NCBI GenBank assembly: GCA_018694835.1
Contig: JABHOG010000007.1
Span: forward strand, 5,525 to 69,524
DNA: 64,000 nt
Origin: Planctomycetota bacterium
Lineage (GTDB): Bacteria; Planctomycetota; UBA8108; UBA1146
Reading direction: 5' to 3'
The notes under the pieces were generated by a model, which searched no databases, had not been told where the DNA came from, and saw only the letters and a list, made by a program, of their open reading frames with translations. Shown here piece by piece: positions 5,322 to 47,962 of the stretch; position 1 is the first letter of the stretch, and every line of letters begins with the position of its first letter. The position numbers were made by a program, and so were the translations under genes.

Positions 5322-5479
5322 ACGTCCCCCCCCTCAAAATGATCCTGTCGAGAATCAGGATGGCCATTGGATTCGATCCGGCTGAAAACCCGTCCGTTCC
5401 TCGTCATGGTGTCGCCGTGGTAACATCGACGACACTAAACCCCAAGGAAACTCTTCGCGAACTTTTCTGGAGCCTGACC

Positions 5480-5983
5480 ATGAACTGGCCTGTGATCCCT
5501 TCTCGTCTCTTACAGAGATCGAATCTTCCGCGAAGTCATGGCGACTCTTCACGCGGACACTCAGGTCTCGTCGGGACTCGCAGTTTTCTCTCTCTCCCGT
5601 GGACAATTGTGGCGCTGCTGATTCTCACTGGCTGTTCAGCCACGTTGCTGCGGCCCCATGCGATCTCGGTCTCCGAGTTTTCTCGAGAAAAAGACGTGAT
5701 CCACTTCATGGTCTCCATCGAAGACTCTACTCAGGAGCAGGACTTTTATCGCTGGTCTCAGGATCACATCCTGGAGAATAACTTCCAGTACGAGAATCCC
5801 GATCATGAGGGGGTCCCCCTCTACGAACTTCACTACCACTTCAGAAAAAGAGGTGATCGGTTTCGTAGCCAAGGCATCGCCTATCTGATGTGGAGAAGAT
5901 CAGAGACATCCCCTCACCAGTTCGAACACAAGTTGACCTATATCGGTTCAGGAATGCCGTTGAGGAACAGGAGATCATGGTGA
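5480..5983 (+). CDS. hypothetical lipoprotein
   Basis: Hydrophobic stretch ending in the lipobox-like LILTGC. GGAG precedes ATG 5480; start uncertain. Confidence 0.6.
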   Translation: MNWPVIPSRLLQRSNLPRSHGDSSRGHSGLVGTRSFLSLPWTIVALLILTGCSATLLRPHAISVSEFSREKDVIHFMVSIEDSTQEQDFYRWSQDHILENNFQYENPDHEGVPLYELHYHFRKRGDRFRSQGIAYLMWRRSETSPHQFEHKLTYIGSGMPLRNRRSW

Positions 5984-31616: not shown

Positions 31617-31883
31617 CTGAACTCTTCCTCGCTGCTCGGATGGGCCGATGAACCGCCGCAAGAAGCGGAATCCACCACCCACTGAGTCTCTTCCTGTACA
31701 GATGATACAAGTGACATCTCCGGTCGGCACCCGCTTGTTGCCCGGTAATCTCCGATTGTCGGGGTCACTGGCAGAGATTCGAGCAGATGGTGCTTCTTCC
31801 CTCCCCTCGGAGGGGTCGAGACGCTAGGATACGCTCTTCTGGAGCCGCTCCAGCGCTCCAAACCTGCGGAACAGGAGCCCCTC

Positions 31884-32255
31884 ATGTCGACTTCCCCGAG
31901 CCGCCAACTGGAGACTTTCGCCAATCCTCAGCCGGGACGTGATTACATCATCCAGTTCGACTGTCCCGAGTTCACCTGTTTGTGCCCGCTGACGGGCCAG
32001 CCCGATTTCGCCCACTTCGAGTTCGAATACATCCCCGATGTCAGTTGCCTCGAGACCAAATCGTTGAAGTTGTACCTCTGGTCCTACCGCAACGAGGGCG
32101 CATTTCACGAGGCGGTGACCAACCAGATCCTCGACGACCTGGTGGCCGCCTGTCAGCCGAGATGGATGAAGGTGACTGGTCGCTTCTTTGTCCGCGGGGG
32201 AATCACCCCGACCATCATCGTCGAACACCGCGCCCACGCCACTGAAGAGGCTTGA
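31884..32255 (+). CDS. queF: NADPH-dependent 7-cyano-7-deazaguanine (preQ0) reductase, short type
   Basis: Motifs [33 protein letters not shown] and RGGI. Confidence 0.96.
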
Positions 32256-32280
32256 CCCGCGAACATCTGTTCACCATCCT
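32252..32280 (+). promoter_or_regulatory. lexA promoter with SOS box CGAACATCTGTTCA between the -35 and -10 elements
   Basis: TTGACC (32252-32257), 17-nt spacer, CATCCT (32275-32280). GAAC-N4-GTTC at 32261-32272 lies in the spacer. Confidence 0.8.
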
Positions 32281-32333
32281 GATCCACGGCTCTGGACCCG
32301 AAGATCGGTTCCAGGTTCTCCTGTGGAGGTGAT

Positions 32334-33074
32334 TTGATTCCCCCGACCGCTGATTCGTCCGATCAGAATCGTACCGATCCCACTTCTGCGGGATCCCAAT
32401 CCGCCCATCCACCGCTCACTGGCAATCGCCTGCAGGTACTGGAATTGCTGCGCCAGAGCGTGCGCCAGAACCGTCCCGCCACGGTGCGAGAGATCGCCCG
32501 GCAACTGGGGCTCTCCTCCCCCGCTTCGGTGCATCGACATCTGCGTCGCCTCGAACAGATGGGGCTGATCGAGCGAGACCCAGCAGCCGGGTCTCGCAAC
32601 TGGCAACCGATCCAGCAGCAACAACACGCCACTTCCTCATCGATCCCGGTGGTGGGACGCATCGCCGCAGGAGAGCCGATCGAAAGTGCTGGTGACGCGA
32701 CATCGAGGGCGGATGCCACCATCCCGATCGACCCCAAGACCTTTGGATCCGCTGCCACCATCGTCGCACTCCAGATCGAAGGGATGAGCATGAGAGATGC
32801 CGGCATCTTGTCGGGAGATCTCGCCATCGTGAGAAGACAGCCGACGGTAGAAAATGGTGAGATCGCCGCGGTCTCCATCGACGGCGAGGGCACTCTCAAG
32901 ATCTGGCGCGGGCCACATGAGGGTGAAGGAGTCGGTCCACAGAAAACGGTCCGCTCGGTTCGACTTGAGGCTGCGAACTGCGGATTCGAGACGATGGAGA
33001 TCGATCCTGGCCAGCATCAGGTGGAAGTGTTTGGCAAGTTGGTCGGCATCATCCGTCGCTTCGAACGACACTGA
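32334..33074 (+). CDS. lexA: SOS-response repressor/autopeptidase LexA
   Basis: wHTH PATVREIARQLGLSSPASVHRHLRRLEQMGLIERD, cleavage site GRIAAG, Ser in GMSMRDAGI and Lys in TLK. Confidence 0.95.
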   Translation: MIPPTADSSDQNRTDPTSAGSQSAHPPLTGNRLQVLELLRQSVRQNRPATVREIARQLGLSSPASVHRHLRRLEQMGLIERDPAAGSRNWQPIQQQQHATSSSIPVVGRIAAGEPIESAGDATSRADATIPIDPKTFGSAATIVALQIEGMSMRDAGILSGDLAIVRRQPTVENGEIAAVSIDGEGTLKIWRGPHEGEGVGPQKTVRSVRLEAANCGFETMEIDPGQHQVEVFGKLVGIIRRFERH

Positions 33075-33087
33075 GCGGAGCCACAGA

Positions 33088-33348
33088 ATGGAAATTCGAG
33101 AAGAAGAGATTCACGAGGCCCTCGATGAAGTGGTGGCCGCCTTTCGCGGAGGAGCCATCGAGATCCGCTCGCTGGTATGGCGTGGCCGATCTTTTGCCGT
33201 CCAGCAGATGCACGCCAGTTGGATCGACCGCTCGATTCAGCCACCGGTCCACGGTTTCACCGTCACTCTGGAAACCGACGACCTGCTGGAACTGGCCTAC
33301 CAGGAGGGCGACCTGGTCTGGCGTGTCGAGCGCTTATTCCTGCAGTGA
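33088..33348 (+). CDS. small (86 aa) ImuB-C/DUF6504-like protein
   Basis: GGAG RBS, 13 nt after the lexA stop. The pattern LVWRGRSFAV......W.....FTV......ELAY.....WRV recalls DUF6504 and the ImuB C-terminal domain (by recognition, not searched). Confidence 0.65.
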   Translation: MEIREEEIHEALDEVVAAFRGGAIEIRSLVWRGRSFAVQQMHASWIDRSIQPPVHGFTVTLETDDLLELAYQEGDLVWRVERLFLQ

Positions 33349-33371
33349 CCCGCATCTCGCTCCAGTCGCAT

Positions 33372-35081
33372 CTAACGAGTGGCCCCTGCCCCTCGGAAAG
33401 ATGATTCCGCCTTACCAAAAGAATCGTCCAGGTCGTGAAACTGTCCTCCCCCATCGCGAGCCACCCCTTGCAGGAACTCGCGGTTTTTGCCGTGGATCTG
33501 GCCGACCGAGAGCACATGAATGCGCGCCTGTCCCCACCGATTCCAGCGTCGGATGTGCCAGCGAAGCCGATCCCCTTGCTGGACCCGCCCCTCGGTGGGA
33601 GCACCCTCGGTGAGTAACATCACCGTATCGGTGCCCGCTTCGAGAACTGCACGGCGCAGCGGCCCGTAAAGGTTTCCTCGCGCCTCCCCGCGCCCCGAGG
33701 GAACCTCCTGTGATCCGATCTTTTTCTCCAGTGCCTTGCGGCTGCGCACCAGCGGCTGAACTCTTGGCAGTGCCGGAATACTATGACTACCGAAGTGCAC
33801 GACCTGGACCATCGCCTCACGAGGTAACTCTCCCAGCACTCGCAGTAATTCGTTCCGCGCAACATCGATGCGCCTGGCACCATCCCCACCAAAACGACCA
33901 TCCACAGTTCGCGACATCCCACCGGAGACATCGGAAAGGAAGACGATTCGAGTCGAGTCGAGCGGCACACCGTGATATCGAATCACCCGGGTGCCCTGGG
34001 TCGGGTCATCGGTATCCTCCGCTCGATCGCCGGCTCCGGTCTGCTCCTCGGCAGCGCCCCCCTCCACCCAGCTCTTACGATGGGCCTTCCACCATGAATC
34101 CCACGAACTGAAACTCGAGCCGATGGGAGAACCCTGATCTGGCATCTCGGTGATGAGTTGCAAGGTCGGCCAGAGTCGTGCCAGGGTCGAGCCCTCCAAC
34201 GTGGAGGCCAAAGGGATCAGCCCGTCGATCAATTCCGCTCGACGACCACGAGGCAAAGCCCGCCCCTCCACTGCCAGGATCTCGAGGCCAGCCCGACGAA
34301 TCCGTTCGCCCCAGATCCCTTGCCGATCCTTCCAACGATCGGTCACCGCCTCATAGGCCGCGCGACATCCCCGTTCGAGGTCCACCACCACCAGTCCCTG
34401 CAGGGCGGCGATGCGCAGTGCTGGCAACTTCTTCTCGGTCAATCGCCGTTCCAGTAGTGCCCTGGCGGCCTCGCCATCGATGACCGCCAACGTGCGCAGC
34501 GCTTCTCCCTGGACAAACCATGGAGACCCCCTCTTCGCCTGCTGCGTCACCAACTCGATCATTTTCTTGTCGTGTGCTGAACTCGGTAGTGCTGCCAGTG
34601 CACCGAGGGCCATCTCCCGTGCATCGGCGGAGGAAGATCGGCGGACCACCGCCAGTAACTCGCTCTTCAACTCGGCATCGGGCTGCTGGAGGAAGATTTC
34701 CGCCAGGATCTCATCGAGCCCCAGCGCTGTTCGATCGTTCGGCTTCGTCTGACCAAAGCCTACTCTCAAGGCTCGGCGCTGCTCGACACTCCACTGCTCG
34801 ACGATCTGGCCAAAGACCTGATCGCGGACGGTTCCAGAAGGATCGCGCAGCAGTTCCAGCACCTGCTCCACGTCGCCGGGCCCCTGATCCACCCGAAGCC
34901 GTGCATCTCGAGCGGCATTTCGTTGTTTCTCGACCGATCGCTGGAGATCGACCCGTTCGGTCGGAGGTTGTGGAATCTGCGCTGCGACTGCGCTGGTCCA
35001 GCAGAGCGCCACGATCGTCAGAGCCGTCGACCATCTGGGGCTCCCCCCGAGGCACCCACCGAGGCACCCGCCGATGCCCAT
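33372..35081 (-). CDS. exported HEAT-repeat protein with C-terminal von Willebrand A domain
   Basis: HEAT-like helices (AREMALGALAAL, VQGEALRTLA, LRIAALQGL). vWA motifs IVFLSDVSGGM, VMLLTEGAPTEG and FLQGVARDGGGQF. Start uncertain (35081 or 35141). Confidence 0.75.
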   Translation of the reverse strand: MGIGGCLGGCLGGSPRWSTALTIVALCWTSAVAAQIPQPPTERVDLQRSVEKQRNAARDARLRVDQGPGDVEQVLELLRDPSGTVRDQVFGQIVEQWSVEQRRALRVGFGQTKPNDRTALGLDEILAEIFLQQPDAELKSELLAVVRRSSSADAREMALGALAALPSSAHDKKMIELVTQQAKRGSPWFVQGEALRTLAVIDGEAARALLERRLTEKKLPALRIAALQGLVVVDLERGCRAAYEAVTDRWKDRQGIWGERIRRAGLEILAVEGRALPRGRRAELIDGLIPLASTLEGSTLARLWPTLQLITEMPDQGSPIGSSFSSWDSWWKAHRKSWVEGGAAEEQTGAGDRAEDTDDPTQGTRVIRYHGVPLDSTRIVFLSDVSGGMSRTVDGRFGGDGARRIDVARNELLRVLGELPREAMVQVVHFGSHSIPALPRVQPLVRSRKALEKKIGSQEVPSGRGEARGNLYGPLRRAVLEAGTDTVMLLTEGAPTEGRVQQGDRLRWHIRRWNRWGQARIHVLSVGQIHGKNREFLQGVARDGGGQFHDLDDSFGKAESSFRGAGATR

Positions 35082-35108
35082 CCGGCGGATCCAGCACCAG
35101 AGTTGTGG

Positions 35109-35122
35109 CGAACATCTGCTCG
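35109..35122. promoter_or_regulatory. candidate third SOS box CGAACATCTGCTCG (one mismatch)
   Basis: Shares GCGAACATCTG with the lexA and dinB boxes; lies about 28 nt upstream of ATG 35081 of the HEAT-vWA gene. Confidence 0.45.
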
Positions 35123-35173
35123 AGAGAGGCTTGGTTACCATCGAGGGCACCCTTTCAATACAGACCCTGCAAA

Positions 35174-35243
35174 TCGACAAGGCTCGACAAGGCTCGACAA
35201 GGATCGACAAGGATCGACAAGGATCGACAAGGATCGACAAGGC
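35174..35243. repeat. 7 x 10-bp tandem repeat TCGACAAGG(C/A) in a divergent intergenic region
   Basis: Read directly from the sequence; copies start every 10 bp from 35174 to 35234. Confidence 0.95.
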
Positions 35244-35401
35244 ACTGCAATTCGTCGAGGAACTGCTCTACCGAACCGAATGATAAATGGATCTTGCGGC
35301 GGTGCCAGTACTACAGAATCCGTTACCGGACACCTTCAAGAGGAGGGCTCGATGGTCCATGCTGCAGCCATGGGTCGAAAGCGACCCGGAAGGAGCGGTC
35401 G

Positions 35402-36082
35402 ATGAGAGTCTGGTCGAATCGTTGCGCAATCGTCCTACTGGTACTGCTGAGCCTCCTGCCATGCGGCTGCACTGCTCTCGACCTGAGCGCCAGAATCGAC
35501 GATCTGACCGACACGGTGCGCGGTCGCGTCGGTGCCGGGTTGGGACTCTACGGCGAGATCGAAGCCACCTGCTGGTTGCACCCGGCGATCGGCTTCGTCG
35601 ATGCGAACCTTGCTCCACGTTTCACCATCGGCCACGACCCACGACCGGGACAGCCCGCCGGAGTGCTACGCTCGGCCTCTTTTCCGACGATGCTGTTCGC
35701 GTTCCCCTTCGCCAAGGCAGCGCCAGGAACGACCGACGACTCGGCCATCTCCGCTCCGCTCAAGGGCTGGCTCAACGCCTGCATCCTCAGAGGAGATCAC
35801 CATGTCGAGGGGGAATCGTGCTCACTGCTGCAGTGGCACCGAGAACTTCATCATGACTGGCTGATCCCGGCTCCCTCACTGGCTCAACTGTCGCAGGCTC
35901 AGCGCAGCAGCAGGAACACCTGGTTCGCCATTTCGGGTACACTGGGTGTGGTAACCATCGATGGAGGCATCAACCCGCTGGAACTGCTCGATGCCTTGCT
36001 CGGCTGGTTCGGAGTCGACCTGATGGAAGATGATCTGCGCCGCCTGGTGCCCTCACCCACCGCCAGAGAAGAGGAATCCTGA
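35402..36082 (+). CDS. hypothetical lipoprotein, translationally coupled to fadE
   Basis: Signal peptide/lipobox MRVWSNRCAIVLLVLLSLLPCGC with AGGAG RBS. C-terminal GINPLELLDALLGWFGVD. TGATG overlap with fadE. Confidence 0.7.
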   Translation: MRVWSNRCAIVLLVLLSLLPCGCTALDLSARIDDLTDTVRGRVGAGLGLYGEIEATCWLHPAIGFVDANLAPRFTIGHDPRPGQPAGVLRSASFPTMLFAFPFAKAAPGTTDDSAISAPLKGWLNACILRGDHHVEGESCSLLQWHRELHHDWLIPAPSLAQLSQAQRSSRNTWFAISGTLGVVTIDGGINPLELLDALLGWFGVDLMEDDLRRLVPSPTAREEES

Positions 36083-38547
36083 TGTTCGAAGATGTTCCAC
36101 TACCTCTCTTCTGCTTGCTGATCGGAGTCCCGGCGCTATGGCTACTGCTGGCGGGCAAGGTGCGCTGGGCCTGGACCGTCGCCGGAGCAATCTTATCTGC
36201 TCTCCCGTTACTCTCCCCCGAACCACCGACCATCACCGATCGGATCATCTGGATCGGCTTTGCCGTGTTGCTGGTGATCGGCTTCATCGCACCCCTGCGG
36301 CGCTGGTGGATCACCTCGATGGTGATGGGAATCGTCAAGAAAGTTCTCCCCGCCATCAGTGATACGGAGCGAGAGGCACTGGAGGGGGGCACGGTCTGGT
36401 GGGACGGTGAAATCTTCTCAGGAGCTCCGGACTGGAAGCACTGGTTTTCCCTCGGGCCGGCACAACTGACCGCAAGAGAACGAGAGTTCATCGATGGCCC
36501 GGTCGCAGAGTTGACTCAATTTGTCGATAACTGGAAGGATCGCCAGGACGGTTCCATCTCCGATGAAGCGTTCGACTTCCTCGCCTCGCGCGGATTCTTC
36601 GGCATGATCATCCCCGAGAGTTATGGCGGACTCGGATTCTCCGCGGCCGCCATGTCCGCAGTGATCTCTCACGTGGCCACACTGAGCAACGCACTGGCGA
36701 TCACCGTGATGGTTCCCAACTCCCTGGGGCCAGGCGAGTTGTTACTGCACTACGGAACCGACGCACAAAAAGATCGCCTGTTGCCACTGCTGGCGAACGG
36801 TCAGGAAATTCCCTGCTTCGCACTCACCGAACCGGGAGCCGGTTCGGATGCGGCAGGATCGATGACGAGTGATGGCGTGGTGGTCGAGCAAGAAGTCGAC
36901 GGACAGAAAGTACTCGGAATCCGACTCAACTGGGACAAGCGCTACATCACATTGGCGCCGCGCGCGACGCTGGTCGGAGTCGCTTTCCGCCTCCATGACC
37001 CCGATCATCTGCTCGGCCAGGTGGATGACCTGGGGATCACCTGTGCACTCGTCTCTGCAGACCTGGATGGAGTCGAGATCGGCGAACGACACGACCCCCT
37101 CGGAGTTCCCTTCCTCAACGGCCCGACCCGCGGTCGTGATGTGTGGGTTCCCATCGATGCGGTGATCGGCGGCGAAGGGGGCTGTGGCAAGGGCTGGCGG
37201 ATGTTGATGCAATGCCTCTCGGCAGGACGCGGCATCTCGCTGCCCTCCAGTTCTGCGGGCGGTTGCCAGTTATGCCTGCGAGTCGCCGCGACTCACGCCT
37301 CGGTGCGAGAGCAGTTTGGTCTACCGATCGGACGCTTCGAAGGAGTCCAGGAACCGCTGGTCCGATGCGCCTCCAGCAGTTACGCCCTCGATGCACTCCG
37401 AGGTATCACCACCCTGGCGGTCGACCGTGGCGAAAAGCCCGCAGTCATCAGTGCCATCGCCAAGGCGTTCGCCACCGAACGATTGCGTGAGGTGGTCAAT
37501 GACTCGATGGACATCGTCGCTGGAAATGCCATCTGCCGCGGTCCCCGAAACGAGCTCGCCAATGCCTACTCGGCAGTTCCGGTCGGAATCACCGTCGAGG
37601 GCGCCAATATCCTGACTCGCACCATGATCATCTTTGGCCAGGGCGCAGTTCGCTGCCATCCTTTCGTCACCGCCGAACTGGAAGCGGTGGAAAAGGCAGA
37701 CCTGGCCGCCTTCGATCGTGCCTTCTGGGGACATGTCGGTTTCGTCGTGTCCAATGGAACCCGCTCACTGTTCCACAGAATCAGCGGCTACCGCCTGACC
37801 GGGCGCGACTTCGACGGAATCATCGGTCGCTGCCAGCAGCGGCTGACCGGCTTGTCGGCTCACTTCGCACTCAGTTCCGACATTGCGATGGCCAGTCTCG
37901 GCGGATCGCTCAAGCGCAAGGAACACCTGACCGGTCGACTCGCCGATGCCCTCTCCTGGATCGCCGTCGGCTCGGCAGCGCTGAAGAAGTTTCACGACGA
38001 CGGTCGTCCCGATCGAGATGCTGAGCTGGTCCAGTACCTGATGGAAACCTGTGTTCTACGGACCGAGGAAGCACTGGCGGGGTTCGTCCAGAATCTTCCA
38101 CACCGTCCAGCGGCGTGGGCTCTTCGTTTGCTGGGAGTACCCGGTCGAGCGATCACGCTCGGTCCCTCCGATCGGCTGGCGGATCGGATCGCATCCGACC
38201 TGCTCGATGGATCGGCGCTGATCCGAAGCCTCACCGAGGATGTGATCTCACGGCCCGCCGGCAGCCCTGGCCTGGCGACCCTCGAAGCCGCTCTGGAAAA
38301 GATCGTCGCGTCCCGTGGCGACACGGAAGCGTTGAAGGATGCCATCCGGGCCAAGCGTCTAGAAAAGCATCCGGCCTCGACGCTGGTCGAGAGAGGGCGC
38401 GCAGCAGGAGTCATCGATGAAGAGGGTGAGCGGCGCCTCCGCGAGGCGGATCTGGCCCGTCGCGAGGCGATTACCGTCGATTCCTTTGCCGCAGGAAGTT
38501 GCCCTGCGACCGAGCAATACCCGACCGATTCTACTGCGACTCAGTGA
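36082..38547 (+). CDS. fadE: large membrane-anchored acyl-CoA dehydrogenase (E. coli FadE type)
   Basis: Motifs LPAISDTEREALEGGTVWWDGE, VMVPNSLGPGELLLHYGT, PCFALTEPGAGSDA, WDKRYITLAP, REQFGLPIGRFEGV and ITVEGANILTR. Confidence 0.93.
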   Translation: MFEDVPLPLFCLLIGVPALWLLLAGKVRWAWTVAGAILSALPLLSPEPPTITDRIIWIGFAVLLVIGFIAPLRRWWITSMVMGIVKKVLPAISDTEREALEGGTVWWDGEIFSGAPDWKHWFSLGPAQLTAREREFIDGPVAELTQFVDNWKDRQDGSISDEAFDFLASRGFFGMIIPESYGGLGFSAAAMSAVISHVATLSNALAITVMVPNSLGPGELLLHYGTDAQKDRLLPLLANGQEIPCFALTEPGAGSDAAGSMTSDGVVVEQEVDGQKVLGIRLNWDKRYITLAPRATLVGVAFRLHDPDHLLGQVDDLGITCALVSADLDGVEIGERHDPLGVPFLNGPTRGRDVWVPIDAVIGGEGGCGKGWRMLMQCLSAGRGISLPSSSAGGCQLCLRVAATHASVREQFGLPIGRFEGVQEPLVRCASSSYALDALRGITTLAVDRGEKPAVISAIAKAFATERLREVVNDSMDIVAGNAICRGPRNELANAYSAVPVGITVEGANILTRTMIIFGQGAVRCHPFVTAELEAVEKADLAAFDRAFWGHVGFVVSNGTRSLFHRISGYRLTGRDFDGIIGRCQQRLTGLSAHFALSSDIAMASLGGSLKRKEHLTGRLADALSWIAVGSAALKKFHDDGRPDRDAELVQYLMETCVLRTEEALAGFVQNLPHRPAAWALRLLGVPGRAITLGPSDRLADRIASDLLDGSALIRSLTEDVISRPAGSPGLATLEAALEKIVASRGDTEALKDAIRAKRLEKHPASTLVERGRAAGVIDEEGERRLREADLARREAITVDSFAAGSCPATEQYPTDSTATQ

Positions 38548-38645
38548 TGCCTGAGGGTCACGAAGAGTCCACCGCCTGACCCGGAAACGGCGCTACGGCA
38601 CGACAGCCAGAATCACTGCATCCAGAATCACTACACTGAAGCGGA

Positions 38646-40976
38646 TTACTCCTTGGCGGCACTCTTCGCGGCACCGTCTCCTCCTCCGGGGAGGACCCTC
38701 TGCAGTGCCGGCAATAGCACCAGCGCTCCAATCATGTTTCCGGCAAACATGAAGCAAAGCAACAATCCCATGTCCGCCTGCAATTTCAGGTCGGAGTAGA
38801 TCCAGGTGGCGACTCCCAGGGCCAGCGTCAACCCGGTCACCAGAACCGCATTGCCGGTGCGCTTCAGAGAGACCAGATAGGCCTTCTCCAGATCCGCTCC
38901 AGCGCGCCGTGACCGCATCAACTGGGTGGTGATGTAGATGCCGTAATCGACTCCGATTCCGACCCCCAGTGCGGCCACCGGCAAGGTCGAGACCTTCAAG
39001 CCGATGTCGAAGATCACCATCAGGGCGTAGCACAGAATACTCACCAGGATCAACGGCAAGATCACACACAGCGTCGCCCGGATGCTGCGAAATGCCAGCA
39101 GTCCCAGGGCGATCACGACCAGGTAGATGGTGACGAGCATCTCCATCTGGGCGGCGGCCACCACCTGATTGGTAGCGGCCATCACACCGACATTTCCAGT
39201 CGCCAGGCGAAAATTGACCTTCTCTGAGTTCAGTTCTGCACCGTATTTCTCGACTGCCGCGGTCACTCGATTGATCGTCTCCGCCTTGTGATCCTCGGTG
39301 AAGATCAACACCGGTAACACGCTCGCATCCGAGTTCAACAAGCCGGTGGAGGTCTCGATACTGCTCAGTGCTTGCGCCAGGATCTCGCTATTTCTTGGCA
39401 GCTCCCGCCACTTGGGCGATCCTTCGCTCCAGGCGGCGGCAAGAATCCTGGCGGCCATCGGCAAGGAGATGGCCGAGCGGACTCCATCGATGTTGGAGAT
39501 CCTCCAGTGGAACTCGTCGATCCGGTCCATCACGTCATGATCGATACTGGCGTTGGGGACCGTTTCGACGATCACGGTGATCAGGTCGACCCCGATGGAA
39601 AATGAGTGTGCGATGTTGCGGGTATCGACGTTGTAGCGCGATTGGGAGTGCAACTCCGGTAAACCTTCGTTGGCATCGCCAATGATGACCTCATCGGCAC
39701 GGCTCCAGCCCCAGTACACCGCAGCGATGGAGACCAATACCAGTACCACCGCCACCGGTCCTCGAGTGCAAGCAGCCAGTCGTTGCCACAGGGAATCTCG
39801 TAACGGCGTCGGTTTTGCCATCCGCTCGGCGAAGGAGTTCTCTACCTTCATCCCGCCCAGCAATAACGGAAGCAGCACGAAGCCGGTGGCAAAGATCAGC
39901 ACCACCCCCACCGCGGACATCACCGCCAGGTGCTGGATCACACCGATCTCGATGAAGAGCAGGGTCAGAAACCCGACGGAATCACTACAAAGCGCCACGC
40001 CGCCAGGAAGGAGTAATTGACGAAAGGCGACCCGTGCGGCGGTCCTTGCATCGGCGCCCTCGACGATGGCTCCGGAGAAAGCACCTGTCATCTGCACCCC
40101 GTGGGACATTCCGATGGCAAAGATGAGGAATGGCACCAGGATCGACATCGGATCGAGTCCGTAACCGAGGGTCGTGATGGTTCCAAGGGTCCAGATCACT
40201 GCCAGCAAGGAGCAGGCCATCGGGAGCAGTGTCAATCGCCAGGAACCGGAGAAGGAGCGCACCAGGAATGCCGTCACCAGCAAGGCGATGGCAAAGAACC
40301 CGACCACCAGAACCGCGCCGCCGGCGATATCTGAAATCGCTTTCGCGAAACCGATGATGTGAATAGCGATGACGTCGTCTTCGTGGGGTAAACGGACCAT
40401 CTCCTCGAGCAGGTTCCCCACCACGATGGGATCCGGTTTCAGCTTGGTGATGGGATCCTGCTCGACCAGCGTTGCGGTGACCATCGCTGCCGAGAAATCG
40501 TTGGCCACCAGTCTGCCCACCTGGCCCGAGTAGAGAACATTCTCCCTGACCTGCTCGGCCATCTCTGCAGTCGGTTGCCATTCCGCAGGCACCACATTAC
40601 CGCCCTCGAATCCACCCTCGACGATGCGCACGAATCGAACGTTGGGAGTGAAGATGGATTTGACCGAGGTGCGATCGACGCCAGGAACTTCCATCAGAGC
40701 GTAGGTCACTTCACGGACCCGCTCCAGCGCAGCAGGATCGAACAGGTCTCCGTCCTTGGCCCGAACCGAGATCAACAATCGATTCGCCCCGCCGAATTGC
40801 TCTCGATGCTTGACGAAGGTCTCCATGTAAGGGTGGCTGAGCGGAAGTTGCTTCTCGAATCCCGCGTCGATGGCCAACCGACCGGCCTGTACCGTCAGCA
40901 GTACAGATACGACCGCGAGCAGCCACAGCATCCTTCGTCGGTGATCGAAGATCAGTTTTTCAAGCCAAGTTGTCAT
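38646..40976 (-). CDS. MMPL/RND-superfamily transporter
   Basis: Two repeats of TM + large loop + 5 TM; motifs AIGMSHGVQ and GVGIGVDYGIY; found with DUF1302, DUF1329 and YCF48 genes. Confidence 0.9.
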   Translation of the reverse strand: MTTWLEKLIFDHRRRMLWLLAVVSVLLTVQAGRLAIDAGFEKQLPLSHPYMETFVKHREQFGGANRLLISVRAKDGDLFDPAALERVREVTYALMEVPGVDRTSVKSIFTPNVRFVRIVEGGFEGGNVVPAEWQPTAEMAEQVRENVLYSGQVGRLVANDFSAAMVTATLVEQDPITKLKPDPIVVGNLLEEMVRLPHEDDVIAIHIIGFAKAISDIAGGAVLVVGFFAIALLVTAFLVRSFSGSWRLTLLPMACSLLAVIWTLGTITTLGYGLDPMSILVPFLIFAIGMSHGVQMTGAFSGAIVEGADARTAARVAFRQLLLPGGVALCSDSVGFLTLLFIEIGVIQHLAVMSAVGVVLIFATGFVLLPLLLGGMKVENSFAERMAKPTPLRDSLWQRLAACTRGPVAVVLVLVSIAAVYWGWSRADEVIIGDANEGLPELHSQSRYNVDTRNIAHSFSIGVDLITVIVETVPNASIDHDVMDRIDEFHWRISNIDGVRSAISLPMAARILAAAWSEGSPKWRELPRNSEILAQALSSIETSTGLLNSDASVLPVLIFTEDHKAETINRVTAAVEKYGAELNSEKVNFRLATGNVGVMAATNQVVAAAQMEMLVTIYLVVIALGLLAFRSIRATLCVILPLILVSILCYALMVIFDIGLKVSTLPVAALGVGIGVDYGIYITTQLMRSRRAGADLEKAYLVSLKRTGNAVLVTGLTLALGVATWIYSDLKLQADMGLLLCFMFAGNMIGALVLLPALQRVLPGGGDGAAKSAAKE

Positions 40977-41998
40977 TGGCCAGCCTTCCCCGAGCCTTGC
41001 GACTTCACGGGAGAGGGCCGATCGAAGTTGCGGTATCCCTTATCGCCTAGAAACTGGAGATTCCCATCCGGTAAAAGGATGGCAGTGCTGATGATTCTTC
41101 GCTCCTCTGGTGAGACATCGGACCAGTTTCCGTCCGCTGAACGATGAAGGGCGCGCCCCTCATCACCAACCACGATCACTTCATCCGTGCCGACCCTGCA
41201 GCCGCCGAAGAGTGCCGCCTCCGATCCGGAATCGATACGCTTCCAGCGACCAGGATGTCCCTCCCACAGGTTGCCACGCAAACCCATCACGATGATGGAA
41301 TCGGGGCTGTCGATCATCACGTGGAAGAAAGTGCCGTCGTAAGGGCTCTCCAGTACAGTCCACTCGTCTCCTCCATCTCGACTCTCGAAGATGGAACCAA
41401 ACTCTCCGGTGACGACCAGCCGTTCAGCGGATTTCTGAAGTGAATAGAGGTGCGGGCCATCTTCCGAGATCAGCTCTTGCTTCCAGTGATCCCCGCCATC
41501 ATCGCTGATCAGCAGCGTGCCGAAAGCGCCCACCGCAACTACACGTGAATCCCCGATGGCCTGAATCGAGAAGAGCCCCAGATCCGCTTCGGGATCGCAG
41601 TACACCGATTGCCAGCTGAGACCGGAGTCGCGCGATCGCAACACGGTGGTGTCGTGGCCCACGGCAAAGGCGGTCCCCTGAGAATCGAGGATAATCGCCG
41701 TCAGCATGCGCCGAGTCGGAGCTTCGATCTGCTGATACGTTTTGCCACCATCGGCGGAACGGAGAATCAAACCGTGATTCCCCGAAACCAGCACCACATC
41801 ACCGACGCAGGTCGCTCCGACCAGCAAGGCAGATTCCGCCTTGTCCGCCATATGCGAGCGATCAGCGACGGTGGGATCATCCTCTACCCTCGCTTCAGCC
41901 GGGTCGATGCAGAAGGAGAGGAGGAAAGCTCCTACCAGTGCCAGAGACAGCACCAGCGTGCGCCAATCAGTCAGGATCACCACCACCGCTCGATTCAT
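40973..41998 (-). CDS. YCF48/BNR (Asp-box) beta-propeller protein
   Basis: Repeated SxDGGxxW Asp-boxes (SADGGKTY, SRDSGLSW, SDDGGDHW, SRDGGDEW) and AVG..G motifs; N-terminal signal. Confidence 0.88.
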   Translation of the reverse strand: MNRAVVVILTDWRTLVLSLALVGAFLLSFCIDPAEARVEDDPTVADRSHMADKAESALLVGATCVGDVVLVSGNHGLILRSADGGKTYQQIEAPTRRMLTAIILDSQGTAFAVGHDTTVLRSRDSGLSWQSVYCDPEADLGLFSIQAIGDSRVVAVGAFGTLLISDDGGDHWKQELISEDGPHLYSLQKSAERLVVTGEFGSIFESRDGGDEWTVLESPYDGTFFHVMIDSPDSIIVMGLRGNLWEGHPGRWKRIDSGSEAALFGGCRVGTDEVIVVGDEGRALHRSADGNWSDVSPEERRIISTAILLPDGNLQFLGDKGYRNFDRPSPVKSQGSGKAGQ

Positions 41999-42015
41999 GA
42001 TGCACCTTCCATGAT

Positions 42016-42059
42016 GAAAAGAAGCCGGGCGGGTGGGGTCTGTTCCCCGCCCGCCCGGC
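42016..42059 (-). terminator. intra-operon terminator-like hairpin between the DUF1329 and YCF48 genes
   Basis: 15-bp GC stem (14/15 paired) with a 6-nt loop, followed by TTCTTTTC on the minus strand, immediately before the YCF48 RBS. Confidence 0.65.
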
Positions 42060-42089
42060 AGCTGATCTGCACCTGGGGGTCAGATGCGA

Positions 42090-43457
42090 CTATCTTCGTC
42101 CACGTCGCGAAAGTGCTGCAGGAGAAAAGTCCTTGTCTCGTAGGGTCACATCAAATCGTTCCACCTGACCGGGAGCATTGAATCCAATGGCGAGATAGCG
42201 GCCATTCTGCAGATCATAGTGCGCCAGCAGGGAATCGTAGAGGATGGGAATGTCGTAATAGACGATGGGATACGCCTCGGACACTCGCCAGATCTTGCCT
42301 GAGTTGTCGTACTGATCGACCACCAGCGGCTGCCATGAATCTTCATCGAAGTGCATGACGCGCTTGGCGTAGAGATGACTGGTGCCCGACTTGACCGTGG
42401 CCTCCACCTTCCAGACCCGGTGATGCTCATAGCGAAGCAGATCCGGGTTCAGGTGTCCTGCCCGGATCATCTGATCCGGATCGACCTCGGCATTGTGAGA
42501 CTTGTAGCAGTTGTAGGGGACGATCATCTCCTGGCGACCGATCAACTTCCAGTCGTAGCGCTCGGGACTGCCATTGAACATGTCGAACTGGTCATTGGTC
42601 CGCTGACCATCGCTGGCGGTTCCAGGATTGTCGAAGGCCACCTGTGGCGCACGGCGTACGCGTCGCAGTCCAGCGCTGTAAACCCAGGCCTTACGAGGTT
42701 CCTGAGCCTGATCCAGCGACTCGTGGACATGCAACTTGGTGCCCGCCAGTCGCGGTGGGGAAATCACTCCCTGGTAGAACTTGGCCAGAATATTGTCCGA
42801 ATTCGCCGAACTCATTCCCTCACGGTTGTAACGCCACATCACCTGCTCTTCGATGCGCACCATCACGAAACTCCCATCGGGAGTGGGAGCCACCTGACCG
42901 ATGGTGCGGGCCATCACTTCGCCGCGGTAGCGCAGCATGTGATTCCACAGCACTTCCAGTCCACTCTTGGGCATCGGGAAGGGAGAGGTACGGCGGCAGT
43001 CCTTGACGCCATTGCCGTCGGCGGTCAATGAAGCAGTTTCTGCGTTCTCGAGGGCAGCCTTGTAGATGTCTTCCGGATAACAAGCACTGCGTCGCGAAGG
43101 GTACACATTCATGTACCAGCTGTCGGGGTAGCGCTCGAACATCGCGACCTGCCCGGCAGAGAGGAACTTGGAGTATTTCTGGTAGTTCTCACCATCGATC
43201 TTGTACAGCGGTTTGTCGCTGGCAAACGGATCGACATAGTGATCCCCAGGCTTCCAGCCGGCAGGAATGGTGTTGTATCCGCCGGTCCAGGGAGGAATCG
43301 TTCCCGCCTTAGATCCGCTTCCATTGCCCGCCTGGATGGCGCCCATTGCGGTGAGTTCCTTGCCCAGTTCAGGGCCGTCCGCCGCAGATGGTACCGTTGC
43401 AACCAGGCCAATGGCTCCCAGTAGCAACAAGCCGAGGACGATCTTTCGATTCAACAT
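42090..43457 (-). CDS. DUF1329 domain protein (periplasmic, LolA-like fold)
   Basis: Motifs LTAMGAIQAGN, GTIPPWTGG, PFPMPKSGLEVLWNH, RKAWVYSAGLRRVRRAP, RYDWKLIG, RYEHHRVWKVEAT and HLYAKR..FDEDSW. Confidence 0.9.
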   Translation of the reverse strand: MLNRKIVLGLLLLGAIGLVATVPSAADGPELGKELTAMGAIQAGNGSGSKAGTIPPWTGGYNTIPAGWKPGDHYVDPFASDKPLYKIDGENYQKYSKFLSAGQVAMFERYPDSWYMNVYPSRRSACYPEDIYKAALENAETASLTADGNGVKDCRRTSPFPMPKSGLEVLWNHMLRYRGEVMARTIGQVAPTPDGSFVMVRIEEQVMWRYNREGMSSANSDNILAKFYQGVISPPRLAGTKLHVHESLDQAQEPRKAWVYSAGLRRVRRAPQVAFDNPGTASDGQRTNDQFDMFNGSPERYDWKLIGRQEMIVPYNCYKSHNAEVDPDQMIRAGHLNPDLLRYEHHRVWKVEATVKSGTSHLYAKRVMHFDEDSWQPLVVDQYDNSGKIWRVSEAYPIVYYDIPILYDSLLAHYDLQNGRYLAIGFNAPGQVERFDVTLRDKDFSPAALSRRGRR

Positions 43458-43469
43458 TGAGGTCTCCTC

Positions 43470-45284
43470 CTAGAATGAGTAACTGGCGGTGAGGGACATG
43501 AAATCTCGGTCGTTACGCAGGTTGTATCGACTACCGCCGAACGAGTTGGTGTAACCGAGTTTGACATCCCACAATCCGAGGGCTCCGACCGCTACCGAGG
43601 TGCTGAGGCCCTTGCGCCCCTCGATGAAGTTCGCCACGGGTACCGGTGAGGTCCCCTCGACGTCATGAGAAAATGCGACGATTGGCGAGACCGCCAGCGA
43701 ACCGATGGCGTTGTAATAGGTCAACTTGATCAGCGCCTTGTACCCCATCGAAAGGGCGTCCGGGAACGCAGACAGCGGCTCAGTTCCAGGCTGGATTCCC
43801 AGGCCGGTGAAGAGGTCGGTTCCACTGGTGTAGGTTCCTGTCGCCTCGTAGCGGAAGTTCGCCTGGTCTTCCATTTCGTTGACGTAGGTCGCTGCGAATT
43901 CACCGACCATTGCAGCCTGGTCGGCACCGAGCAGACCCGCCATCACCTTGGTCAGACTGAACTGAGCCTGGGCGACATCCTTGCGATTGAAACCATGAAT
44001 CGTCTCACCGTAATCAAATGCACCGATGGTGCTCTGACCGAACACCCCATTGAGGGGGGACAGTGCAGCAAAGAGGATCTCCACATCATCGACCTGCAAC
44101 GGCTGGTCGATGTGAAGGGAGGCTTCCCCCTGCAGAGCGATCCCGGTATTTCCAAGGTCAGAGTTGAAACTGATCCCGAAGGTATCGATATCTTCAGGGT
44201 ACTCGAGGAAGTACTCGGCAGAGCCGCCGTAGTCGCCGGCTGCGACCCCTGCTGGAGTTCCGGTGATGGCACTGATGATGGGCAGTCGACTGTGTAGATG
44301 AGTGTAGAACAGGCCGACCTCGGTACCGCCCAGTTCCTCGATGAACCAGCGAGCGGAGAGACCGTACTGGCCGAGGTCATCGGGAGTCCTGTCGCCGGTG
44401 CGATGTACTCCCACTCCTATCGGTGAGTTGTAAGTGGGATTGGTACCAATCGGTCCTGGAACCGGAGTATCGACGATCTGGTCGTCGACACCGAAGCCCA
44501 GCAACACGTGGTTTCCACCCGGACTGGCGATATCAGTGACCGAGAAGTAGGTGCCGAGCGGTTCGAGTCGAGTCGGGCGCCAGCCGAGCTGGTAAAAGCC
44601 CTGCAACACGACGGTATCGGAGAGATCGTAGTCGAACTTGGCAGCCGGAATCGGTACCAGTGCTTCCTTGATCTCTGAACCGGCGGCTCGCAGTTTCGAC
44701 AGATCGACCGGGTTGATGGTGTTGAGACCATTCTGGATGAAGGTACTCTCCCCCCAGTTGATCACCTGGCTTCCCAGGGTCACCGTCAACGGATTGTCGA
44801 TGTTGCCAAAATCTCCGCGGATCCACGCATCGAGCAGGATCGCATTCTGGCCCGCAAACCGCTCTGCAGTGCCATTCAATGCGGGGCGGCCTTCAGCGAG
44901 AACATCGCCTTCACGGACGGCAAAGTCGGTGAAGTAAAATCCTCTCACAAAAACAAAGTAATCGTCGACATCGAAGGAGATCTCGTGCAGCACCTTGAGG
45001 TTTTGCGAGAAGATATCCCCTACATCGTAATTGAGGTTTCCGTCATCCCCGTTGAGGGAGTGTCCGGTACCGCCATTGGTGGTTCCGACGATACTGGGAT
45101 CTCGATCCGAGACTCTCCAGGAAAGCCCAGCGGAGACGGTGGTATCGAAGTGTCCCGTGACCTTTCCATGGATCAGGTCGAACTCGATGGCTCCGGCGAT
45201 GACTGGTGCCAGGGTAAAGATGGTCACGAAGAGAGCGGCTTGTAACCGTGCTCGTGATCCAAGCGGGGAACGAGATCCTCGCAT
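43470..45284 (-). CDS. DUF1302 domain outer-membrane beta-barrel protein
   Basis: Motifs FDTTVSAGLSWRV, NGDDGNLNY, GSQVINWGESTF, HSRLP and EYPEDI; C-terminal DRDFMSLTASYSF BamA-type signal. Confidence 0.9.
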   Translation of the reverse strand: MRGSRSPLGSRARLQAALFVTIFTLAPVIAGAIEFDLIHGKVTGHFDTTVSAGLSWRVSDRDPSIVGTTNGGTGHSLNGDDGNLNYDVGDIFSQNLKVLHEISFDVDDYFVFVRGFYFTDFAVREGDVLAEGRPALNGTAERFAGQNAILLDAWIRGDFGNIDNPLTVTLGSQVINWGESTFIQNGLNTINPVDLSKLRAAGSEIKEALVPIPAAKFDYDLSDTVVLQGFYQLGWRPTRLEPLGTYFSVTDIASPGGNHVLLGFGVDDQIVDTPVPGPIGTNPTYNSPIGVGVHRTGDRTPDDLGQYGLSARWFIEELGGTEVGLFYTHLHSRLPIISAITGTPAGVAAGDYGGSAEYFLEYPEDIDTFGISFNSDLGNTGIALQGEASLHIDQPLQVDDVEILFAALSPLNGVFGQSTIGAFDYGETIHGFNRKDVAQAQFSLTKVMAGLLGADQAAMVGEFAATYVNEMEDQANFRYEATGTYTSGTDLFTGLGIQPGTEPLSAFPDALSMGYKALIKLTYYNAIGSLAVSPIVAFSHDVEGTSPVPVANFIEGRKGLSTSVAVGALGLWDVKLGYTNSFGGSRYNLRNDRDFMSLTASYSF

Positions 45285-45640
45285 GCTGGTGTACCTCCTT
45301 GCTGAGATGAACGCTTCGATGACTCCCGGGGAGTGGTGCCAGACATCCGGCGGGCCTCCGACGAGATCATCCGGACTCTCGAGAGATGAGTTTGATAGGT
45401 GTCGTCATGACAGAGTGGTCATAACCGCAAGAGAAAGGTCCCACCTCTCCCTCATCACACACACACCTCGACTGCTCACTTCTCGCCATTTCCTCCGGAA
45501 CAAAGCGTCTACGAGCAGGGAAGATACGGGATTGACAGGGCATCAGACAAGCATCATCTGCTCTGGCAATCTCAACTCTTCTGGTTCAAAGTGTCCGGGA
45601 AGTGCAAATAGACTGCAAATCTGCCGACAGGGAGCCCAAG

Positions 45641-46087
45641 ATGACCGATGGAAATCACCAAAATCAGCCAACTGCGCAAGATTACTGGCCCTTACAACTT
45701 CCCATCGTGGTGGCCTGGGGTGACATGGATGCCCTCGGCCATGTCAATAACACCCGATTCTTGCGCTGGTTCGAGGATGCCCGTTTCGAGGTGTTTCAGC
45801 GCATCGGATCGAGAGAACTGGGTCCTCACACCGGCAGCGGGCCGATCCTCGCCCGGGTCGAGTGCATCTTTCGCAGCCCGGTCCAGCATCCCGACACCGT
45901 CACCTCGATGATCCGGGCCTCCGACATCGGCACCGATCGGTACACCCTGGAACATCGCCTCGAGTCGCAACAACAGGGCAAGGTGGTCGCTCTGGGCACT
46001 TCCCGCATCGTCGAGATCGATTATCGAACAGGCGAAAAGGTCGCCCTCAGTGATGAGGTGCGGGCCCAACTCGCAGAACTGCGCTGA
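45641..46087 (+). CDS. acyl-CoA thioesterase (4HBT/YbgC-FadM hot-dog family)
   Basis: Motif VAWGDMDALGHVNNTRFLRWFEDAR; GGGAG RBS before ATG 45641. Confidence 0.9.
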   Translation: MTDGNHQNQPTAQDYWPLQLPIVVAWGDMDALGHVNNTRFLRWFEDARFEVFQRIGSRELGPHTGSGPILARVECIFRSPVQHPDTVTSMIRASDIGTDRYTLEHRLESQQQGKVVALGTSRIVEIDYRTGEKVALSDEVRAQLAELR

Positions 46088-46951
46088 TCAACAGTCCGGG
46101 AACATCGATCCGGGACCATCCAAGAATAGATCTGGCAGTGGTGCGACCCCCTCGACAGTGGCATAGGAATCGGGATCGACTCCCCGCTCTCGCAGCACAT
46201 CCTCGTCGATGAAGAAGTTACCGGTGACCTCTGCTGGATCTCGCTCGACGATGGCGTGCAGGGCATCGGCGACGATTTCGGGCCTGCGCGTCGCTCTGCG
46301 ATCCATTCCCGGAATCAACCGTAGTGCTTCGGTGTCGATGACGGTACGGGGCCAAAGACCGTTGACCGCGATACCGAGCGGTTTCAGTTCTTCACTCATC
46401 CCGAGCACGCACAGACTCATCCCATACTTGGAGATGGTGTAGGCGGTATGCCGCGCAAACCAGACCGGTCGCAGCGAGAGCGGCGGCGAGAGATTCACCA
46501 CGTGTGCTCCATCGCCATGACTCATCGCTTCGATGGCGGCCCGGGTGAAGGTGTAGGTTCCTCTCACATTGACATCGAACATCAGATCGACTCGCTTCAT
46601 CGGAGTCTGGCTCACCGGAGTCAGGGAGATGGCGCTGGCATTGTTGACCAGGATGTCGATTCTGCCGAAGCGATCCACCGCCGCGGCGACCGCTGCCTCG
46701 ACCAGTTCATCGTCGCGAATATCCATCTTGACGGCGAGCGCTTCACCGCCAGCATCCTCGACCATCTTCGCCGTCTCGTGAATCGTTCCAGGCAGTTGTG
46801 GATGAGGCTGGTCCGTCTTCGCCGCGATCACCACCTTGGCCCCGTCTCGCGCGGCACGCAGGGCGATCGCACGGCCGATTCCACGACTTCCTCCCGAGAT
46901 CATCATCACCTTGCCCGCCAGCGGCGTGGCTGGAGAAGATTGAGGATTCAA
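46088..46951 (-). CDS. SDR family oxidoreductase (HSDL2-like)
   Basis: Motifs ISGGSRGIGRAIA, AAKT..PHPQLPGTI, LVNNASAI, YTISKYGMS and VNGLWPRTVI. The TTG start overlaps the upstream TGA; GGAGG RBS. Confidence 0.9.
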   Translation of the reverse strand: MNPQSSPATPLAGKVMMISGGSRGIGRAIALRAARDGAKVVIAAKTDQPHPQLPGTIHETAKMVEDAGGEALAVKMDIRDDELVEAAVAAAVDRFGRIDILVNNASAISLTPVSQTPMKRVDLMFDVNVRGTYTFTRAAIEAMSHGDGAHVVNLSPPLSLRPVWFARHTAYTISKYGMSLCVLGMSEELKPLGIAVNGLWPRTVIDTEALRLIPGMDRRATRRPEIVADALHAIVERDPAEVTGNFFIDEDVLRERGVDPDSYATVEGVAPLPDLFLDGPGSMFPDC

Positions 46952-47766
46952 GACGCACCTCCTGTCGCTGATCTGTAATTGGGCGGTCGCTTCTCGATGA
47001 AAGCCTGTACCCCCTCGGAAAACTCGGTTCCTGCGGCACATTCTCCGAAGGAGAGTGCCTCCGCTTCCAGTACTTGCTCCAGCGTACCGCTGTCGTCACG
47101 AAGAAGCTTGCGCGTACGACCGAGAGCCTCTGTCGGTCCATTGGCCAGTTGCGTGCAAACTCGCATCGTTTCTTCCTCCAGTTGGTCCCGATCGACCGCA
47201 CGAGCGAAGAGTCCCCAGGAACAGGCGGTGTCTCCATCGATGCGCTCGTTGAGCAGTGCCAGTTGCATCGCTCGCTGACGACCGATCAAGCGCTGCAGTT
47301 GATAGGTCGATCCTCCGTCGGGACTGGTGCCGATGCCGGTGTAGGCGAGGGTGATCTTGCTGTCGCTGGCGCAGATCACCAGGTCGCACGCCAGCGCCAG
47401 ACTCAAGCCGAATCCAGCACACGCACCGTGTACCTGAGCCACCACCGGAATCGCCAGCCGATCGATGGCGAGGATGGTGCGATGTACCGAGCGAATCTCC
47501 TCGGCGACCACCTCACGCCGCTGATCCGGATCGGTACAACTGGCAAACATGCCGGCAAACCATCGTAGATCGCCGCCAGCCATGAAGCCGCGCCCCGCTC
47601 CCGTCAGTCGAAGCACCCGGATCGCCCGATTCTCAGCGGCCTCGGTGAGCACTGCCTCCAGTTCCTCGACCATCGTCCCGTCGAGGGAGTTCAAATGACC
47701 GGGCCGTTGCAGTGTCAGGGTGGCCAGGCCGCTGGCGTCTGGGCCTTCCCACTGGAGCGTTTCCAT
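46948..47766 (-). CDS. enoyl-CoA hydratase/isomerase (crotonase family)
   Basis: Motifs LTGAGRGFMAGGDL, VHGACAGFGLSLALACDL, IGTSPDGG and EGVQAFIEKRPP. Confidence 0.92.
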   Translation of the reverse strand: METLQWEGPDASGLATLTLQRPGHLNSLDGTMVEELEAVLTEAAENRAIRVLRLTGAGRGFMAGGDLRWFAGMFASCTDPDQRREVVAEEIRSVHRTILAIDRLAIPVVAQVHGACAGFGLSLALACDLVICASDSKITLAYTGIGTSPDGGSTYQLQRLIGRQRAMQLALLNERIDGDTACSWGLFARAVDRDQLEEETMRVCTQLANGPTEALGRTRKLLRDDSGTLEQVLEAEALSFGECAAGTEFSEGVQAFIEKRPPNYRSATGGAS

Positions 47767-47886
47767 CTATTTCTTCCTCTCACCGGTGCACTTCATCCGA
47801 CTTCAAAGCTCCTCATCGGACCTCATCCGCCTCATGGGGGCGCATGGTGCTGTCCAGGATCCCACAGCACAAGACAAGGGTAGATG

Positions 47887-47908
47887 GCGAACAGATGTTC
47901 GCTATCCT
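47887..47908 (+). promoter_or_regulatory. SOS box GCGAACAGATGTTCGC abutting a TATCCT -10 element upstream of the Y-family polymerase
   Basis: Perfect 6-bp arms GCGAAC-N4-GTTCGC at 47887-47902 and TATCCT at 47903-47908; same box-to--10 geometry as at lexA. Confidence 0.82.
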
Positions 47909-47962
47909 GTCCCACCCCGCTTGTCGCCCAGAAAGAAAAGAGCAAGAAAAGAAAGGACGCCC

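Follow-up and report, generated by a model that had tools for sequence, protein, structure and literature searches.

Candidate LexA operators precede three units of a split mutagenesis cassette in a Planctomycetota genome

A 64,000-nucleotide stretch of a Planctomycetota genome (the window, G000:C94:5525-69524) carries a GAAC-N4-GTTC palindrome before a lexA gene and again before a gene for a Y-family DNA polymerase (polY), and a genome-wide search added a third, identical box beyond the window, at C94:83788-83803 before a DnaE2-like polymerase gene. We propose that these boxes are operators of the LexA encoded in the window (LexA1), which probably controls only the unit of its own gene, polY and dnaE2. 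The window is then likely to hold two pieces of a mutagenesis cassette under LexA control that has been split into three in this family, each piece keeping its own operator. A sequence-only reading of the window had described a general SOS regulon that could be read from the DNA; that description was not borne out, and a three-unit mutagenesis circuit was found in its place. G000, the window's own genome, is a 3.13-Mb draft in 149 contigs with 57.4% guanine plus cytosine and 95% completeness, and 40 relatives, the nearest in its genus and the most distant in its class, were searched alongside it. The features that enter the argument are these:

32252-32257, plus strand: -35-like hexamer TTGACC of the lexA promoter, 17 nucleotides upstream of CATCCT
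32259-32274, no strand assigned: candidate LexA box 1, GCGAACATCTGTTCAC, within the spacer of the lexA promoter, matrix score 22.4
32275-32280, plus strand: -10-like hexamer CATCCT of the lexA promoter
32334-33074, plus strand: lexA, the cassette-linked paralogue (LexA1), with a TTG start behind GGAGGTGA
33088-33348, plus strand: gene for an 86-residue protein, starting 13 nucleotides past the lexA stop
47880-47885, plus strand: GTAGAT at the -35 position of the polymerase promoter, a poor match placed by 17-nucleotide spacing alone
47887-47902, no strand assigned: candidate LexA box 2, GCGAACAGATGTTCGC, matrix score 26.0
47903-47908, plus strand: -10-like hexamer TATCCT of the polymerase promoter, directly 3' of box 2
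47963-49288, plus strand: polY, Y-family DNA polymerase with IMS, IMS_C and IMS_HHH_1 domains
G000:C94:83845-86994, outside the window: DnaE2-like polymerase gene

Both 16-mers were found where the sequence-only reading had placed them, GCGAACATCTGTTCAC at 32259-32274 and GCGAACAGATGTTCGC at 47887-47902. Its description of their geometry also held: the two GAAC-N4-GTTC 12-mers are exact mutual reverse complements, and at both sites 2 nucleotides separate the end of GTTC from the -10-like hexamer. Box 2 is a perfect 16-nucleotide palindrome except for its central 2 nucleotides. In the lexA and polY promoters each box occupies the 17-nucleotide gap between the -35-like and -10-like hexamers, so a bound LexA would occlude the promoter, and the placement of a box in the promoter of lexA itself implies autoregulation. 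The GAAC-N4-GTTC word occurs four times in the window against 1.2 expected, a count reached by 0 of 100 shuffles; the remaining two copies (22794 and 36478) fall within long open reading frames. A longer word, CGAACANNTGTTC, matches the two named sites only, against 0.04 expected. Looser matches to CGAAC-N4-GTTCG, with at most two mismatches, are over-represented across the window as well (66 found, 38.8 expected), which is possibly compositional.

The third box extends this pattern. The polY and dnaE2 promoters have 25 identical bases in common, TGGCGAACAGATGTTCGCTATCCTG, and TTGGCT stands as the -35 hexamer before the dnaE2 box. The extended 14-mer CGAAC-N4-GTTCG is exact in two of the three sites and has one mismatch in the third.

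The box is conserved at all three genes. A 16-mer matrix for scoring was derived from the sites upstream of lexA in relatives, 20 of them distinct. Within the family, an exact GAAC-N4-GTTC lies at most 350 nucleotides upstream of the lexA orthologue at 21 of 21 loci. The polY orthologue has a box of at least 19.8 bits at all 20 family loci with 400 nucleotides of upstream sequence (2 more loci were cut short), and the dnaE2 orthologue has one of at least 22.9 bits at 20 of 20 (3 more loci lacked upstream sequence). Beyond the family the lexA box was found at 4 of 9 loci of the wider order or class and the polY box at one same-order locus, and in relatives at class level polY and dnaE2 are preceded by weaker variants, of 12-21.6 bits. 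Across the family sites GAAC and GTTC are invariant and the central N4 varies, which is the pattern of a protein-binding site and not of an RNA helix; an Rfam search over 31800-48400 matched no family. The lexA box is followed in the same register by CCA or CTA in relatives, and the polY box by TATCCT, TATGCT, TACCCT or TACGAT. The palindrome noticed in the sequence-only reading is therefore a real, conserved, operator-like element, on these family counts and its presence in three promoters. LexA loci 74-96% identical to LexA1 come from metagenome-assembled genomes (MAGs) labelled Planctomycetota or Planctomycetes, and a search for related loci in named genomes returned only four such close MAGs and weak partial matches.

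The same matrix delimits the circuit within the genome. Only three hits in G000 reach 20 bits, at lexA (22.4), polY (26.0) and dnaE2 (26.0). The next-best hit scores 16.3 and lies inside a 758-residue open frame; only 9 hits reach 12 bits. Of the genes before which the sequence-only reading had proposed to look for the box, dnaE2 has one, and recA, uvrA and recN do not. The latter three, located with family models, have no box within 500 nucleotides upstream in G000, with best scores below 0, and no box was found upstream of recA at 30 loci, where the best matrix score was 3.0. Direct repeats of the forms GTTC-N7-GTTC or GAAC-N7-GAAC were likewise absent upstream of recA at these 30 loci.

A full classical SOS regulon, with recA, uvrA and recN under degenerate boxes that the scan missed, is the alternative that survives best, and we consider it improbable. 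It could draw on the rigidity of the matrix in its GAAC/GTTC core, on the excess of CGAAC-N4-GTTCG variants with up to two mismatches in the window (66 against 38.8), and on the roughly 5% of the genome that is missing. True sites with one core mismatch, however, still score 16-20 bits, well apart from the recA maximum of 3.0 over 30 loci and from the negative scores upstream of all three repair genes, and every G000 hit of 12-17 bits lies within at least one open frame of at least 120 residues, four of them within frames of 530-1187 residues. At the uvrA locus itself, two full-length UvrA matches (1192 and 1110 bits) stand head to tail in one 1917-residue open frame (G000:C3:89179-94767), so that the gene has either been duplicated in tandem or encodes two UvrA units fused together.

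The arrangement of the same genes in a relative points to what the three units are. In a same-class relative (G039:C180), lexA (799-1668), a small gene (1988-2149), polY (2466-3704) and dnaE2 (3925-7035) follow one another, and lexA has GAAC-type boxes upstream. In G000 the lexA, polY and dnaE2 units do not form one unit; distances of 15 kb and 30 kb separate them on contig C94. Two further loci (L190 and L191) have a contiguous pair of the 86-residue gene and polY and, where the locus ends, a short piece of dnaE2; lexA is adjacent in L190 only. Because lexA, the 86-residue gene, polY and dnaE2 are contiguous in a relative, the window is best read as part of a split mutagenesis cassette and not as a classical SOS regulon.

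The products of the boxed genes are consistent with such a cassette. The call of 32334-33074 as LexA was confirmed by TIGR00498 (147.1 bits against a cut-off of 110.95), and the protein has a LexA_DNA_bind domain (PF01726, the winged-helix N-domain) and a Peptidase_S24 domain (PF00717, the C-domain). Its AAGEP, GMSM and TLK motifs align with the cleavage site, serine and lysine of Escherichia coli LexA, so that the predicted cleavage apparatus, an Ala-Gly site with a Ser/Lys dyad, is intact; the full-length PDB matches aligned with it are of E. coli type. A recA gene is present in G000.

The 86-residue gene directly follows lexA at 20 of 21 family loci, the 21st being cut short, and it also occurs at three class- or order-level loci that carry the box. 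PF20114 (DUF6504) matches 10 of 19 aligned homologues, the best of them at E = 2.8e-6. The copy in the window matches weakly, at 17.4 bits against a cut-off of 24.2, and a whole-genome DUF6504 search of G000 gave nothing at E<=0.01, since 17.4 bits does not suffice in a search of that size. In a control set of 14 genomes DUF6504 matched in Caulobacter only, and an Atlas look-up of the protein gave DUF6504 as its lead (0.90). The AlphaFold model is all-beta, with seven strands and a predicted local distance difference test score (pLDDT) of 93.2, and a Foldseek search of the model against the PDB returned no usable match (best E-value 0.24). PMC6511836 describes the standalone ImuB-C as a small, predicted all-beta protein without a known structural relative, encoded beside lexA and a Y-family polymerase in organisms that include Planctomycetes, and the standalone ImuB-C of Deinococcus has 80 residues (PMC8072749). 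The 86-residue protein is probably a DUF6504-like standalone ImuB-C, where the equivalence of DUF6504 and ImuB-C is presumed.

The gene after box 2 encodes a Y-family polymerase, as the sequence-only reading had proposed, on the basis of its IMS, IMS_C and IMS_HHH_1 domains. Its best NCBIfam rows are for DNA polymerase IV (Pol IV), all below their cut-offs. The DIDAFF and LDEAY motifs align with active-site motifs of solved Pol IV structures, and with these acidic residues retained the enzyme looks catalytically active. A second Y-family gene, 32% identical to polY, lies on contig C32. Repeated CTCTCCCTCCAT was noted at the 5' end of the polymerase open reading frame (window 47975-48010).

PRK05672, a model for error-prone polymerases, aligns with the whole of the dnaE2 product, but the score of 546 bits is below the cut-off of 939, and a separate replicative-type DNA polymerase III alpha subunit, 33% identical to the dnaE2 product, is encoded on C147. 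Just upstream of the dnaE2 promoter are six copies of a 15-nucleotide unit, CCTCGTTCTTTCCGC (L001:1650-1735; G000:C94, about 83650-83735). The ImuA model NF033429 matches only recA in G000, and this is a low-power model, since 0 of 14 controls pass its cut-off.

These features suggest a mechanism of a familiar kind. A LexA1 dimer bound in the -35/-10 spacer would keep RNA polymerase off the promoter. When DNA is damaged, self-cleavage of LexA1, set off by RecA filaments, would release three units: lexA with the 86-residue ImuB-C-like gene, polY, and dnaE2. Genes for RecA and excision repair would stand outside this circuit. Binding of LexA1 to the boxes, repression by that binding and induction by damage are steps that we infer from the DNA.

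The genome encodes a second LexA (LexA2; G000:C46:40-762, minus strand), which is 34% identical to LexA1. That LexA2 binds the box, alone or together with LexA1, with LexA1 having another target, seems to us unlikely, a shade more so than the classical regulon. The two paralogues score alike on TIGR00498 (about 147 bits each) and most relatives have both, LexA2 being encoded in 20 of the 20 relatives fetched. On the other side, the box precedes lexA1 at 21 of 21 family loci, the box-linked LexAs form a clade of their own (100/99 support), and the third helices differ, SPASVHRHL in LexA1 against SRVTIHEHI in LexA2. LexA2 moreover has a different element in its own operon promoter: TTGATGTTnGG-N4-TGTTnGG followed by a -10-like hexamer, present in 20 of 21 sequences. 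This is a direct repeat with an 11-nucleotide period, located in the spacer, and it contains no GAAC-N4-GTTC. The sequence-only reading had taken the palindrome to define the LexA motif of this lineage; the box goes with the cassette-linked LexA1 only.

In each of 20 relatives the gene immediately before lexA2 is conserved and encodes a tail-anchored protein (loci L047-L066 and L127-L146; G000:C46:40-2950 in the window's genome), which has a QLEIFPL(H/Q)PG(T/S)NPARP motif and a C-terminal membrane helix. An inverted copy, CCCTAACA, lies downstream of the TGTTnGG repeat in the lexA2 promoter, and the gene upstream of lexA2 contains PLPLQ repeats. No wider LexA2 regulon is claimed: a 22-mer matrix made from the element in its promoter and looser direct-repeat patterns match only LexA2's own divergent promoter region in G000, the other matches of the element being a tRNA-like sequence and sites within long open frames.

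A promoter-intrinsic or mobile palindrome copied among the three promoters, for example by gene conversion, could account for the 25 identical bases (TGGCGAACAGATGTTCGCTATCCTG) of polY and dnaE2, but it is the least probable alternative and very unlikely, given that the three promoters differ outside the box, that the box is kept across genera while flanks and N4 change, that the genome holds no other copies and Rfam no match, and that the three genes behind the box form one LexA-linked cassette in a relative.

Several points weigh against the boxes being dedicated LexA1 operators with so narrow a reach. The assembly is a draft, 95% complete and spread over 149 contigs. A strict sigma-70 scan called neither the lexA nor the polymerase promoter; judged against E. 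coli, the -10-like hexamers are weak, that of lexA having only 3 of the 6 consensus bases, and GTAGAT is a poor -35 for the polymerase. Matrix sites were picked by exact GAAC-N4-GTTC, so divergent sites are penalised and weak members of the regulon may be missed. The family-locus counts measure conservation and are not probabilities, and the relatives are not independent, so that support is overstated. LexA2, though an improbable binder, counts here too, as does the by-eye judgement of helix and operator co-variation, which covers eight cassette loci of other families and the class-level clade.

That co-variation came from cassettes elsewhere in the phylum. Of 301 Planctomycetota genomes sampled, 49 have homologues found with an alignment of the 86-residue gene, as do 35 of the 191 that are of high quality, and 30 loci were fetched from the 49 positive genomes. 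Contiguous cassettes of lexA, the small gene and polY, some running into dnaE2, occur in several other families. Their lexA promoters carry ACTCAAC-TTTT-GTTGAGT, CCACAC-N4-GTGTGG (two genomes), GGTGAAC-ATGT-GTTCACC or a direct repeat, at or just after the promoter spacer (L190, L197, L199, L202, L203, L205). Four cassettes without an adjacent lexA have (T/A)AAC-N7-TAAC-type direct repeats instead. GAAC-type boxes pair with S[SP]A[ST]V.[RK]HL-like third helices of the adjacent LexA, CACAC-N4-GTGTG with STGSVRDYL, and CAAC-N4-GTTG with SRRAAFEHL. The third helix therefore changes together with the palindrome, which supports the neighbouring LexA as the binder.

In a maximum-likelihood tree, which covers 57 LexA sequences after removal of one partial row and has no named outgroup, two clades separate with 100/99 support each. 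The LexA1-like clade contains genomes of the window's class only, including the G039 cassette LexA, and the other clade contains LexA2 and the cassette LexAs of other families. GAAC-N4-GTTC cannot stand as the motif of the phylum, since CAAC-N4-GTTG, CACAC-N4-GTGTG or direct repeats take its place in other cassettes of Planctomycetota; as a predicted operator it belongs to one cassette-dedicated LexA lineage. A broader picture, which we offer tentatively and regard as somewhat doubtful, is that Planctomycetota may have two separate LexA circuits, neither controlling recA, one dedicated to the mutasome with a palindrome that diversified alongside the helix and the other acting on the TGTTnGG direct repeat. 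In Verrucomicrobia, a related phylum of the same superphylum as Planctomycetota, Erill and colleagues reportedly described an inverted LexA motif in 2016, TGTTC-N4-GAACA. That motif would share the GAAC and GTTC words with the box described here, with the order of the half-sites inverted.

Both the mechanism and the architecture are of already known kinds. According to PMC3323433, GAAC-N4-GTTC is the LexA operator of Bacillus subtilis and Mycobacterium tuberculosis, and in the core Gram-positive regulon, as PMC7739468 presents it, the box also precedes recA and excision-repair genes. Judged by its letters and position, the element is a putative Cheo-type LexA operator: the 12-nucleotide palindrome is the same, it is extended to CGAAC...GTTCG, and it stands in the lexA promoter and before error-prone polymerases. 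The present case differs in that the planctomycete host has a second LexA and there is no box at recA (G000 and 30 loci) or at uvrA or recN (G000).

Three described mutagenesis cassettes bear comparison. In Pseudomonas putida a lexA2-imuA-imuB-imuC(dnaE2) operon is under a second, dedicated LexA, as stated in PMC5261740, and P. putida resembles the present genome in having two lexA genes, one of them linked to a DnaE2 mutagenesis cassette. The cassette described here differs in being distributed over three units with their own operators and in having a Y-family member that looks active; ImuA belongs to the P. putida operon, whereas here the low-power ImuA model finds recA only. The likeness to Deinococcus lies in a lexA gene beside a small gene, there for a standalone ImuB-C of about 80 residues and here for a probable one, a Y-family protein and DnaE2; the Deinococcus cassette is without ImuA, and recA and repair genes in Deinococcus are under something other than the cassette LexA. 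Unlike in Deinococcus, where ImuY is predicted to be inactive and the cassette is a single operon, the acidic residues are kept here and the cassette is split. Geobacter has an operon of lexA, imuB-C and polY, with related polymerases in Planctomycetes, according to PMC6511836; that paper gives no operator for Planctomycetes, and in the present circuit DnaE2 is included as well.

The one statement on this group that our literature search turned up is that the E. coli motif is not recognised by the LexA of Planctomycetes (PMC3108266). The search found no described LexA operator for Planctomycetes or Planctomycetota, with several key papers outside its reach, so an earlier description is possible.

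The boxes provide concrete, testable candidate operator sequences for the phylum. As far as the DNA of this lineage shows, its LexA circuit appears to govern error-prone polymerases only, which fits the published view of translesion synthesis as the conserved core of SOS (PMC7739468). The split arrangement indicates that a mutagenesis cassette can be broken up with each piece probably retaining its operator, and the presence of two LexAs, together with the operator variants across the phylum, offers material on how repressor specificity evolves. If the tentative two-circuit picture is true, the palindrome and helix pairs (GAAC, CAAC and CACAC) would form a natural series for reading the code that relates the LexA helix to its half-site, and the tail-anchored protein co-transcribed with lexA2 could be a damage-induced effector.

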